From an uncultured Alphaproteobacteria bacterium (lineage in GTDB: Bacteria; Pseudomonadota; Alphaproteobacteria; RF32; CAG-239): a DNA stretch of 64,000 nt. The translations under genes were made by a program, and so were the position numbers. The stretch covers positions 21,232-85,231 of the forward strand of contig CAKQRQ010000004.1 of NCBI GenBank assembly GCA_934271465.1. Reading direction: 5' to 3'. Positions 45,791-48,388 of the stretch are shown one piece after another (the first letter of the stretch is position 1; the number at the start of each line of letters is the position of its first letter). The notes below the pieces were generated by a model that did no database searches, had not been told where the DNA came from, and saw only the letters and a program-made list of their open reading frames with translations.

Positions 45791-48388
45791 TTATTGGGCG
45801 ATGCAGCTCAATCCATCATCCGAAAGCTCATAGTCAACATCATAATGGTGAATATCCCCACACAAACGGCAAGAACAATCAGCTCGATAAACTCTACAAT
45901 GTTCTATCAAAGGGCATCCTGAGCCATTTGAATAGTCAATAACACAACGGAACCTCATGTGCTTTTCTTTTTTTTCCATGTGATAAGTACCTGAACCTCT
46001 TTGCACTGAGGAACATTTTGTAGCATTTAACTCTGTTGAAGTCATAAGTGATCCAATATCACTATGACCACCCAAAACAATTTTTGACCCAAACTTTAAT
46101 GCTAACGTATCAAAAAGACAAGCTATGTGAACATCCTGCCCTATCATTGTCATCACCTCCCGAGCCGCTGGTAAATACCACTTACCTTTATCGGAATCTG
46201 TGACGCCATATTTGCTGCAATATACCGCCGCCGAATTTTCTTCCGCTCCGGCCGCAATAATGCAATCCGCATCGGACCGGTCATCTGCGCCGGTACAGCC
46301 TGTTTTTATGGTGGCCAAATTTTTACTCCACGGAAGAGTAATCTCATCTAAAGACAGAGCTAACAAGCGCCCCCTGCCATCATCTCCAGCCTTATAAATT
46401 ATACCTATCGGCGTTCTGTCTGATGGAAAATTGTCAGGATCATAACAGTTGAAATCATCATAAAGCACCATTCCAGGAACACATTCATCAGCAGAATAAA
46501 CACATTTATTATCCTTCAACGTAAATCCTCTGGCGCAAACAGCGCATTCTGTTTCAGAAGCACATTGTTTACAATAATCTACGTCGCACATATCAGCATA
46601 GGTATGGCAATAGTTTTCCCTACAGCTTCCTTCAAATAAATATCCATCAAAAGACTCATAACAGGCAGAACATTTACAATCAGCCCATTCACTATCATAT
46701 TCTGAACAGTTTCGAATATCTTTTCTACAAGCCTCGCGGCATTCGTTAACCTCGCTGTCAAACAAATATCCACTCGGACAAGCCTCACAAGCACAACTTA
46801 TGTTATTAAATGTTTTACCCTGTGTGGCGCAGGTTTCAGCATTCAAAGTGCATGTCGGCTTATAAAACTGACACGGGCAATTATCTGACGCTTGAGCCGC
46901 GCTAAGAAGTTGATCTTCATCAAAATCCTGAATTCCTGTAATATCTTCCGAATATTTGTACGACGTGCTCCAGTATGTCCCTTTAAACGATCCGCTATAA
47001 GGATTATCAGGATCAAAATTGCCCGCAGATCTATCAGAACTAAATGTCAAATCTTTCAGATTTACAATTGTCACATCACGCCCATTTTTCGAAACGCTCG
47101 AAACGATTCCGACAGGCACTTTGCTTCCATCATAATCCGCCGCCGAACCGTAAGTTTTATCATAATACATCACATCACCGATTTGCGGAGCTGTTCCTCC
47201 TGTAGATGGATTAAAACAATCTTTTAAGAATAGAAAACAACGAAGAGCCATAGAAAAACTAACTTTGCTAGTCTTATTCCGGTAACCATTCTGGACACCA
47301 TTATTCGTTAAAAAAAGCCAAGATTGTTCTCCATGATAACCTGATGATTGTTTATCATATTCAGAAGACGACCAATATACTTGGTTCGAAACTTCTGCAT
47401 TAACACCTTTGCTAGAAAGAGCCTTCAGAGCGTTATCAATCAAACTTTGATTTTCTCCAACAGAACCTGTTGTTCCCATACCGGCAGTCATTTGCGCAAC
47501 ATCCGTTCCATAAGAATACATCCATTCACCGATTGAAGGCAAATACCATTTACCTTGGCCAAAATCACCATTTTTATCCCCAACATAAAATCGATGTGCT
47601 GCATAAGCGGCTAAAGCTTGATTGCCGATTTGATCAATAACAGCATTTGTATTATCCTGCCCTGCAAACAACGGATAAGCAATCTTGCATTTTTCAACAC
47701 ATGGATCGACAACGCAGGCGCCGTTTTCAAAGATATAGCCGTCTTCACAAGCTGTGCAGTTGCAGGGATCATATTCGCTGTCATAAGCCGTGCAATTCTC
47801 AACCTTGGTGCACATCTTCTTACAAACCCCGTCAACAAGCAGATAGTTTGTCTCGCACGTCTGGCAGTTGCAAGGCTCATACTCGCTGTCATAAGTCGCG
47901 CAATGCTCAACTTTTGTTTTATCGCAAGCGATTTGCTCGCAAGCCTTTGTCTCGGAATTGAATTGATAATTTGTCGGACAAGCCTCGCAAACGCAATTTG
48001 CAGAATTAAAGGTCTTGTTTTCCGCCGCGCAGATATCGACCGACTTATCACATTCCGGAACACAAGCCCCGTCAGAGACTAAGTAAGTGTCTTCGCACGC
48101 CGTGCATTGGCAATCGTTGTTATAAGCCGTGCAATAATTTATTTTATCGGCGCATTCGGCTGACCAATTCTCATCAGTTACCCCGGGATTCTCGGCATCA
48201 GGCAGCTGCTTCACTCCGGAGCAATAAAACTTGCTTTCATCAAACGGACATCTGACACCTTTGCCGCCCGCACAAGAATCTTGCGTATAGCCCAATTCGG
48301 CGCAGCTCGGCACCTCCTCGCAATCCATTTGAGCCTGCACGGCCGGAACAAAAGCCAAAAAGGACAGAACAAAAAAGAGCTTCTTCAT
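45791..48388 (-). CDS. Secreted cysteine-rich repeat protein with two DUF1566/Lcl-C-like modules
   Basis: 865 aa; signal peptide MKKLFFVLSFLAFVPAVQA. It has at least 8 Cys-rich repeats of the form C..YDSEY.PC.C..C...Y......G.C. Module 1 (aa 238-498) is homologous to the flagellin insert. Module 2 (aa 636-817) carries GKWYLPAAREV and RFRCV. Confidence 0.8.
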   Translation of the reverse strand: MKKLFFVLSFLAFVPAVQAQMDCEEVPSCAELGYTQDSCAGGKGVRCPFDESKFYCSGVKQLPDAENPGVTDENWSAECADKINYCTAYNNDCQCTACEDTYLVSDGACVPECDKSVDICAAENKTFNSANCVCEACPTNYQFNSETKACEQIACDKTKVEHCATYDSEYEPCNCQTCETNYLLVDGVCKKMCTKVENCTAYDSEYDPCNCTACEDGYIFENGACVVDPCVEKCKIAYPLFAGQDNTNAVIDQIGNQALAAYAAHRFYVGDKNGDFGQGKWYLPSIGEWMYSYGTDVAQMTAGMGTTGSVGENQSLIDNALKALSSKGVNAEVSNQVYWSSSEYDKQSSGYHGEQSWLFLTNNGVQNGYRNKTSKVSFSMALRCFLFLKDCFNPSTGGTAPQIGDVMYYDKTYGSAADYDGSKVPVGIVSSVSKNGRDVTIVNLKDLTFSSDRSAGNFDPDNPYSGSFKGTYWSTSYKYSEDITGIQDFDEDQLLSAAQASDNCPCQFYKPTCTLNAETCATQGKTFNNISCACEACPSGYLFDSEVNECREACRKDIRNCSEYDSEWADCKCSACYESFDGYLFEGSCRENYCHTYADMCDVDYCKQCASETECAVCARGFTLKDNKCVYSADECVPGMVLYDDFNCYDPDNFPSDRTPIGIIYKAGDDGRGRLLALSLDEITLPWSKNLATIKTGCTGADDRSDADCIIAAGAEENSAAVYCSKYGVTDSDKGKWYLPAAREVMTMIGQDVHIACLFDTLALKFGSKIVLGGHSDIGSLMTSTELNATKCSSVQRGSGTYHMEKKEKHMRFRCVIDYSNGSGCPLIEHCRVYRADCSCRLCGDIHHYDVDYELSDDGLSCIAQ

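Follow-up and report, generated by a model that had tools for sequence, protein, structure and literature searches.

The minus strand of positions 45791-48388 in a 64,000-nucleotide stretch of DNA from an uncultured alphaproteobacterium (contig CAKQRQ010000004.1; hereafter the window) carries an ATG-started open reading frame (ORF) of 865 amino acids (aa) plus stop codon, which differs drastically between strains whose surrounding DNA is nearly identical. The predicted protein consists of a signal peptide, a conserved N-terminal "handle", two blocks of cysteine repeats (blocks 1 and 2), a C-terminal repeat unit, and two globular modules that resemble DUF1566/Lcl_C (modules 1 and 2; Table 1). 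An earlier note, made from the sequence alone, had described these domains; the hypervariable mosaic locus, which it missed, is the main point. We consider it rather probable, if far from certain, that the gene product is a modular, lectin-like adhesin or surface antigen that is exported, depends on DsbA, and evolves under diversifying selection.

Hypervariability was assessed at the syntenic loci L005, L007, and L008. When the window is compared with L005, the 20 kb of DNA on the flanks show 98.7% identity, whereas the gene reaches only 67% overall. In 300-nt bins, identities of 90-92% are confined to the first ~400 nt of the gene, past which they drop to 52-78%, and the island of divergence stops no more than 200 nt from the stop codon. 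The homologs P0003 and P0008 have the same neighbors as the window gene on both sides, as does P0011, which is accompanied by an extra adjoining ORF of 125 aa; P0004 and P0013 share the neighbors on one side. The source of P0003 is PRJEB22765, a gut catalogue of Macaca fascicularis, and the records of P0011 and of the paralog P0015 carry the name "Hadza", which points to human samples. The close alleles are of gut origin, a statement that concerns these relatives and not the window itself. The FtsH relatives listed include copies that are 99-100% identical; their longest contigs equal in length those that bear the alleles P0003, P0008, P0011, and P0013, with which they are therefore presumably co-located. 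In comparison with the more distant locus L003, DeoA is 94%, AsmA 83%, and the gene product 52% identical, and the L003 product differs in architecture, in that it has module 1 twice and lacks module 2.

The closest homolog changes from segment to segment. Block 1 is most similar to P0015 (93%), module 1 to P0007 (72%), and block 2 and module 2 to P0002 (82 and 75%, respectively). Since separate segments have separate nearest relatives, the gene beyond its conserved handle reads as a mosaic. Every allele or copy that we examined in an assembled locus is intact and encodes 827-1040 aa, as is the gene in close relatives, where the earlier note had asked whether it might be disrupted or absent. 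Intact ORFs of such divergence between almost identical flanks point to diversifying selection with recombination.

The family is also present as paralogs. In L002, a P0022-like gene (4295-6778, minus strand) and P0018 (7021-9738, plus strand) are arranged head to head. The first 339 nt of this pair are 92.6% identical and the remainder ~66%; as this similarity persists despite differing signal peptides, it suggests either 5' gene conversion or a strong constraint on the handle. P0015 (L010, 3501-6065) is located immediately 5' of flgE, which encodes the flagellar hook. P0014 (L011, 3501-6203) is flanked by surA and pheT and shares its metagenome sample of origin with the window contig. Among the GTDB species representatives, the only match is a family fragment with 54% identity on the 1677-bp contig L004 (JAUNFH010000268.1); this contig is binned as "Clostridia bacterium" and is probably mis-binned.

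The gene has a Shine-Dalgarno sequence, GGGGG, about 10 nt 5' of the ATG, and the DNA upstream is AT-rich. All DNA and protein coordinates of the earlier note convert correctly, and the cysteine-free signal peptide that it proposed is borne out (MKKLFFVLSFLAFVPAVQA, followed by QMDC); the cleavage context A-x-A/QMDC recurs in homologs whose signal peptides are otherwise different. The handle is 71-98% identical among full-length relatives, whose remaining parts are far less conserved, and its motif CxxxPxCxxLGY is also present in subfamilies of other architecture. A search with the handle alone retrieved no candidates, which reflects the shortness of the query, given that near-identical homologs exist. 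It gave no Pfam match at E<=10, and in the AlphaFold2 (AF2) model the predicted local distance difference test score (pLDDT) stays below 50 at all its residues except one. The signal peptide contributes none of the protein's 68 cysteines (7.9%), which form clusters at aa 23-56, 79-234, 504-636, and 825-862; modules 1 and 2 hold two and seven, respectively. At the C-terminus (...DDGLSCIAQ), no transmembrane segment, hydrophobic stretch, β-barrel, or known sorting domain was seen. The DsbA-family ORF to which the earlier note had drawn attention carries the expected domain and active site (Table 1) and likely encodes the oxidant for the 68 cysteines. It lies ~15 kb from the gene among housekeeping genes, and plausibly acts as a helper rather than as a linked partner.

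Table 1. Coordinates of the features discussed in the text (window positions; aa numbering of the 865-aa protein).
Feature	Position	Strand	Description
Whole ORF	45791..48388	-	865 aa, monocistronic
Sec signal peptide, aa 1-19	48332..48388	-	MKKLFFVLSFLAFVPAVQA, cleaved before Q; read from sequence, without lipobox
N-terminal "handle", aa 20-78	48155..48331	-	DCxxxPSCAELGYTQxSCxGGKGxRCPFDxxKFYC; 5 Cys, plus C79
Cys-repeat block 1, aa 79-234	47687..48154	-	four 6-Cys units (A, B, A, A)
Module 1, aa 235-503	46880..47686	-	DUF1566/Lcl_C-like, putatively permuted: core first, β-hairpin part last
Cys-repeat block 2, aa 504-636	46481..46879	-	CPC linker, then B, A, CxxC...CxxC variant
Module 2, aa 637-824	45917..46480	-	DUF1566/Lcl_C-like, canonical order: β-hairpin part, then core ...GKWYLP...RFRCV
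C-terminal Cys unit, aa 825-865	45794..45916	-	type A-like
Terminator-like hairpin just 3' of stop codon	45742..45764	-	10-pair stem, then T-run
Divergence island between strains	45600..48900	.	window vs L005, MAFFT alignment in 300-nt bins; blastn
Module 1 copy within flagellin ORF 14871-17141	15720..16571	+	tblastn, hypervariable region
DsbA-family thiol:disulfide oxidoreductase	29664..30389	-	Pfam DSBA E=8e-20, active site CGYC

Repeat units were delimited by a regular expression and MAFFT alignment. Seven canonical units, beginning at aa 86, 120, 163, 199, 520, 561, and 831, follow the pattern C-x(6-11)-C-x-C-x2-C-x(10-18)-C, usually continued by x(3-4)-C, and one variant CxxC...CxxC unit occupies aa 601-636. 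The core motif C.C..C occurs seven times compared with 0.40 expected, a count reached by none of 20,000 shuffles; with shuffling confined to the Cys-rich regions, 1.37 occurrences are expected and 5 of 20,000 shuffles reach seven. Pairwise identity between units ranges from 17 to 61%. The two flavors of repeat reported in the earlier note are real: type A units (C[TS].YDSE..C.C..C) begin at aa 86, 163, 199, 561, and 831 and type B units (CA..KTFN...C.CEACP) at aa 120 and 520. Their order along the protein, A, B, A, A in block 1, then B, A, variant in block 2 and a final A, is however not the strict alternation that had been described. Each unit has six cysteines, the protein as a whole has an even number of them, and the two odd counts that flank module 1 (seven and three) also give an even sum; this parity fits full pairing, possibly with a disulfide that clamps the ends of module 1. 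The Cys and Tyr columns of block 1 are invariant across 39 relatives.

The repeats match nothing in Pfam or NCBIfam when the whole protein is searched, and the isolated blocks gave no Pfam match even at E<=10, the variant surface protein (VSP) and Furin-like models included. They thus represent a sub-type described by neither library, and the earlier note's proviso that they might belong to a well-characterized bacterial family found no counterpart among the curated families. The whole protein and its segments also had no match in PHROGs. An NCBIfam GlcD match of the whole protein is noise (15 bits against a cut-off of 897 bits), and VopV, the sole Protein Data Bank (PDB) sequence match of block 1, is spurious, with no cysteine aligned and a score that sums many weak repeats.

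A profile built solely from the eight units of the window and searched against 1.84 billion representative proteins retrieved 363 proteins at E<=0.001. The matches outside the family include many-repeat proteins that pass the Pfam VSP model, namely P0124, P0126, P0128, P0129, P0130, and P0133, with E-values from 1.6e-33 to 2.2e-9 (P0124 1.6e-33, P0128 7.7e-27, P0126 9e-18). The P0128 cluster includes the Tetrahymena thermophila "surface protein" XP_001012148, and another matched cluster carries the name "proprotein convertase subtilisin/kexin type 5". Alignments of single units to the VSP-type matches span the full unit, for example CASYDRTNGKCTSCVTGHHLQDGQC. P0121 and P0125, which have lipoprotein-type signals, and P0131, a membrane-anchored protein of 176 aa with the CxCxxC form of the repeat, look bacterial and bear related C..C..GY.L..G.C arrays; the repeat class is therefore wider than this alphaproteobacterial family. 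In the literature on bacterial furin- or VSP-like repeats we found nothing relevant.

AF2, run with 39 family sequences, predicted block 1 (aa 79-234) as a chain of short β-hairpins with four strands, i.e., two hairpins, per unit and a block-mean pLDDT of 71-95. A Foldseek search of this model against the PDB returned nothing at E<=0.001, and the best neighbors are not significant (E 0.007-0.4, TM score <0.35). Among the 50 matches listed, those that can be recognized are essentially all extracellular eukaryotic disulfide modules, such as LRP2 EGF arrays, cysteine-rich domains of the TNF receptor family (DcR3, TNFR1, 4-1BB), R-spondin Fu1-Fu2, and Pfs25/28; cystine-knot proteins are absent from these 50. 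The "cysteine-knot-like" label of the earlier note was accordingly not upheld, since the units are predicted as pairs of tandem β-hairpins in a rod, while its furin/VSP-type resemblance gained support from the profile matches and the weak structural neighbors. By framework and predicted fold, the repeats probably belong to the furin-like/VSP class.

Both modules resemble Pfam PF07603 (Lcl_C, formerly DUF1566; gathering score 34.9 bits), as had been proposed. Module 2 matches the model at aa 718-816 with E=3.9e-5 and 24.4 bits, under the gathering score, and four of its eight orthologous copies match as well (best 4.9e-7). The window's module 1 has no Pfam match of its own; Lcl_C was detected in 13 of 21 module 1 relatives (best 9.6e-8), and several full-length homologs hold a precomputed PF07603 match. 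The core motifs of DUF1566 are found in both modules (an AA..C helix, G.W[YF]LP..E, [YW]WSS/T, and a terminal VR.V/RC), including those previously quoted for aa 636-817. In an hhalign comparison, residues 5-155 of module 1 align with residues 64-184 of module 2 over 121 columns (96.4% probability, E=1e-9), and the best PDB match of the module 1 family profile is the C-terminal domain (CTD) of Legionella pneumophila Lcl (8q4e), with E=0.06 on the YWSS...VR motif.

The C-terminal portion of module 1 (GDVMYYD...PVGIV...VTIVNLKDLT) is similar to the N-terminal hairpin portion of module 2 (GMVLYDD...PIGII...LLALSLDEIT), with a Smith-Waterman z of 3.9 (2 of 500 shuffles reach the score) and an hhalign probability of 60% (E=8e-5). 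In Lcl-CTD, the β-strands S1-S4 come before the DUF1566 core (PMC11162425). Because the core of module 1 matches that of module 2 and its C-terminal part resembles the module 2 N-terminal hairpin, module 1 is most simply explained as a putative circular permutant of the Lcl-CTD arrangement. AF2 predicts it as one compact domain with a pLDDT of 94.4 and a predicted TM score (pTM) of 0.92. Its top Foldseek matches in the PDB are noise, e.g., a norovirus protease at E=0.24, and the top match in BFVD, a siphovirus DUF1566 protein, is not significant (E=0.12). The Lcl-CTD structure (8Q4E) shows a monomer with a C-type-lectin-like fold, and the protein is an adhesin that binds sulfated host glycosaminoglycans (PMC11162425). 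DUF1566 has been reported to adopt the CLec fold and to outnumber all other Pfam domains among the targets of diversity-generating retroelements (DGRs; PMC6642488), as would suit a domain that binds ligands and is frequently diversified.

Module 1 is shared with a flagellin encoded in the window, in agreement with the earlier note: aa 240-501 of the 865-aa protein are 46% identical to the translation of nt 15720-16571. The flagellin has Flagellin_N and Flagellin_C domains and a Pectate_lyase_5-like (β-helix) region; in this protein and in at least 45 related flagellins, module 1 is found between Flagellin_N and Flagellin_C. The part of flagellin that is enclosed by the conserved helices at its two ends forms the surface of the filament, and the location of module 1 in this exposed region is the best indirect evidence that the module acts outside the cell. 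The window flagellin's copy is at most 61% identical to that of any related flagellin. Copies of module 1 from the Cys-rich proteins are 45% identical to each other and 46% to flagellin copies, and the nearest neighbor belongs to the same class, flagellin or Cys-protein, for 79 of 81 copies; recent exchange of the module between the two classes is thus not evident. The flagellin gene stands isolated between an LD-carboxypeptidase gene and anmK. A look at the literature on flagella of gut RF32 bacteria yielded nothing relevant.

The closest characterized protein is Lcl. Both proteins are exported and combine a stalk with a DUF1566 head whose core motifs are present in the window protein. However, the stalk of Lcl is a collagen triple helix, whereas that of the window protein is made of disulfide-rich furin/VSP-type repeats without GXY. 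Unlike Lcl, the window protein has two heads per chain, of which one is apparently permuted, spans ~270 aa, and has large insertions; its module 2 has seven cysteines, whereas Lcl-CTD is free of disulfides; and the gene is hypervariable, whereas Lcl-CTD shows over 97% conservation among strains. The trimeric CTD, secretion as a substrate of the type II secretion system (T2SS), and binding of sulfated glycosaminoglycans are traits that belong to Lcl. As it has no collagen repeats, the window protein is not an Lcl-type adhesin.

With the protozoan VSPs (Giardia PF03302; Tetrahymena and Paramecium antigens) and metazoan proteins with furin-like repeats (PC5/6, R-spondin, the EGFR family), the repeat units align over their full length with the consensus C-x-C/x-x2-C-x2-G[YF]-x-L-x2-G-x-C. 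Tandem arrays of units, a variable family with one conserved end, and a predicted β-hairpin rod are further likenesses. The window protein nevertheless fails the Pfam VSP and Furin-like models even at E<=10. In contrast to Giardia VSPs, it is bacterial, has a Sec signal, and lacks the C-terminal transmembrane anchor and CRGKA tail; compared with VSPs in general, its repeats are interrupted by lectin-like modules and its variation is allelic and recombinational between strains rather than a switching of expression. The variable DUF1566/CLec-fold proteins of DGRs share a CLec-type binding domain and strong diversification (PMC6642488), but no reverse transcriptase and no template or variable repeat was found here, and the window gene is diversified throughout, as a mosaic with gain and loss of modules.

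Flagellins with functional domains in their hypervariable region, such as the proteolytic "flagellinolysins", are known, and the window flagellin and its relatives resemble them in that they contain module 1 between Flagellin_N and Flagellin_C. The 865-aa protein differs from them in having no flagellin helices and a Sec signal instead of the flagellar export apparatus. New in comparison with all these systems is a DUF1566 adhesin-like modular family with an undescribed Cys-repeat stalk, a putatively permuted head shared with flagellin, and mosaic hypervariability.

In our preferred model of an exported lectin-like surface protein, Sec export and cleavage of the signal peptide would be followed by oxidation of the 68 cysteines in the periplasm, with the window's DsbA as a candidate catalyst. 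The furin/VSP-type 6-Cys units would fold as rigid β-hairpin rods that serve as stalks and spacers and bear two divergent DUF1566/Lcl_C heads of C-type-lectin-like fold, one of them the putative circular permutant of the module that is displayed also on the flagellar filament. The near-invariant N-terminal handle may hold the protein on the cell or play a part in its export or docking. Contact with the environment would fall to the variable distal parts, whose partners are most likely glycans of the host or of mucus, or other ligands on surfaces. Diversifying selection on these exposed parts may come from host immunity, phage, or niche glycans and would account for mosaic recombination among alleles and paralogs at the locus. 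A constant N-terminus with variable distal parts is reminiscent of anchored variable surface proteins of opposite polarity, e.g., the streptococcal M protein.

Several points weigh against this model. The window's own modules fall under the Pfam Lcl_C gathering threshold, and module 1, despite its confident AF2 model, has no Foldseek match in the PDB at E<=0.001, 8Q4E not being among the 50 matches listed; the lectin-like fold of the modules is accordingly putative, a prediction from sequence. In the protein, no signal for translocation across or anchoring in the outer membrane is recognizable besides the Sec signal, and no T2SS genes were seen within the 64-kb window. In addition, the E-values of the eukaryotic matches sum many weak per-unit scores (13-20 bits; 13-26 bits over the profile matches as a whole), and given such modest scores the furin/VSP likeness could have arisen by convergence towards a similar Cys framework instead of by common descent.

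Other explanations share parts of this evidence. VSP-type repeats, extreme allelic diversity beside a conserved terminus, several paralogs per genome or sample, and a Cys content that would imply protease resistance are what a variant coat or decoy would have, i.e., a dense, variable, protease-resistant layer like VSPs or immobilization antigens in which the DUF1566 modules have no specific ligand. Most alleles, however, keep two lectin-like domains with conserved cores, which suggests that binding matters, and the window contains no invertible promoter or silent cassettes that would support expression switching; we regard such a coat as unlikely, if the most serious of these competitors. The protein might instead remain inside the cell envelope and bind a bacterial glycan (peptidoglycan, lipopolysaccharide core, or flagellar glycan) in the periplasm, for instance during flagellum or envelope biogenesis. 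A recognizable Sec signal with no outer-membrane export signal, the paralog next to flgE, the module in common with flagellin, and the proximity of the locus to kdsD-lptCAB are in line with this, but a DNA difference of 33% between flanks of 98.7% identity is unexpected for a housekeeping periplasmic protein, the flagellin module region faces the outside of the filament and not the periplasm, and the genomic neighbors vary among paralogs. This makes an envelope-internal role improbable.

We give an equally low probability to a role in conflict between microbes or with phages, in which the protein would be a phage receptor, a decoy, or a contact-dependent recognition protein and phages or competitors would drive its variation. 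The restriction of hypervariability to one gene would suit this role, as would the occurrence of DUF1566 in phage proteins, among them the top, non-significant BFVD match, and in DGR targets (PMC6642488). The neighboring genes include none for toxins, immunity, or phage functions, no PHROG match was obtained, and the data do not tell the selective agents apart. The rank of DUF1566 among DGR targets (PMC6642488) also raises the question of retroelement mutagenesis of a C-terminal variable region, a mechanism that we reject for the window and consider highly improbable: no reverse transcriptase is found among the annotated ORFs, the window holds no template-repeat-like DNA copy of the gene apart from the flagellin module (68-79% identical), and divergence extends across almost the whole gene, with indels and module swaps, instead of a short A-biased tract. 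A decaying or spurious gene, for which we found no supporting point, has practically no probability left. The intactness of every copy examined refutes decay, and the invariant Cys framework, the confident AF2 models, and the gene's own ribosome-binding site and terminator argue in the same direction.

The gene is flanked by kdsD-lptC-lptA-lptB-rpoN-hpf on one side and deoA-deoC-PNP-cdd-asmA on the other, within a housekeeping stretch that includes the dcw cluster, a CcrM-like methylase, FtsH, and flagellar genes. A 23-bp tandem repeat at 45652-45735 (ATCCGGTATTTTGGCGAGAATTT, 3.7 copies, 82% matches) lies between the deoA stop codon and the gene's terminator and borders the divergence island; L001 and L007 have an exact unit in the corresponding position. 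On the kdsD side, a 142-aa ORF (48604-49032, minus strand) has hydrophobic N- and C-terminal segments, is followed by a terminator-like hairpin, and has no Pfam or PHROG match. An ORF of 129-165 aa holds this position in every syntenic locus; the L005 copy, the only one compared, is 87% identical and differs chiefly at the C-terminus.

Elsewhere in the window, a 1040-aa ORF (57114-60236, minus strand) has only a weak match to DUF2345 (VgrG-associated), and its counterparts in L005-L007, which extend beyond the stretches compared, are listed at 1031-1043 aa. The CcrM-like DNA methyltransferase (11511-12656, minus strand; N6_N4_Mtase and RAMA domains), an enzyme in keeping with an alphaproteobacterial origin, adjoins two tandem, overlapping Ppx/GppA phosphatase paralogs (9302-11420, minus strand). 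Flagellar genes are dispersed among housekeeping genes at 5751-7406 and 61639-62643. Named from their translations, three small ORFs at 5751-6943 resemble the rod genes fliE, flgC, and flgB, and 7008-7406 resembles a C-terminal fragment of FlhB; 61639-62643 has a strong Pfam match to FliM. Two plus-strand ORFs of 177 aa (32751-33284) and 317 aa (36135-37088) have no Pfam match at E<=1e-4.

The locus has uses beyond its own biology: a gene at 67% identity between flanks at 98.7% provides a natural marker for strain typing and an opportunity to test for diversifying selection in commensals, and the repeats could become rigid, protease-resistant scaffolds in protein engineering. To our knowledge, Lcl is the only solved example of DUF1566; the present family pairs this domain with a repeat type outside the Pfam and NCBIfam models, and a putatively permuted version of it is displayed on flagella. 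We know of no host-interaction factor of uncultured primate-gut Alphaproteobacteria, and the locus offers a concrete candidate for one, a predicted family of strain-variable, disulfide-rich, lectin-like surface proteins. A more speculative reading, possible but short of probable, is that the family constitutes a bacterial counterpart of the protozoan variant surface proteins, a recombining multigene coat with VSP/furin-type repeats, a constant N-terminal anchor, and a permuted lectin head in common with the flagellar filament. If this were true, the repeats might have been acquired from gut protists or have converged with theirs, filament and surface protein would share a binding specificity and diversify in parallel, and the bacterium could track host glycans while escaping immunoglobulin A (IgA) or phage.

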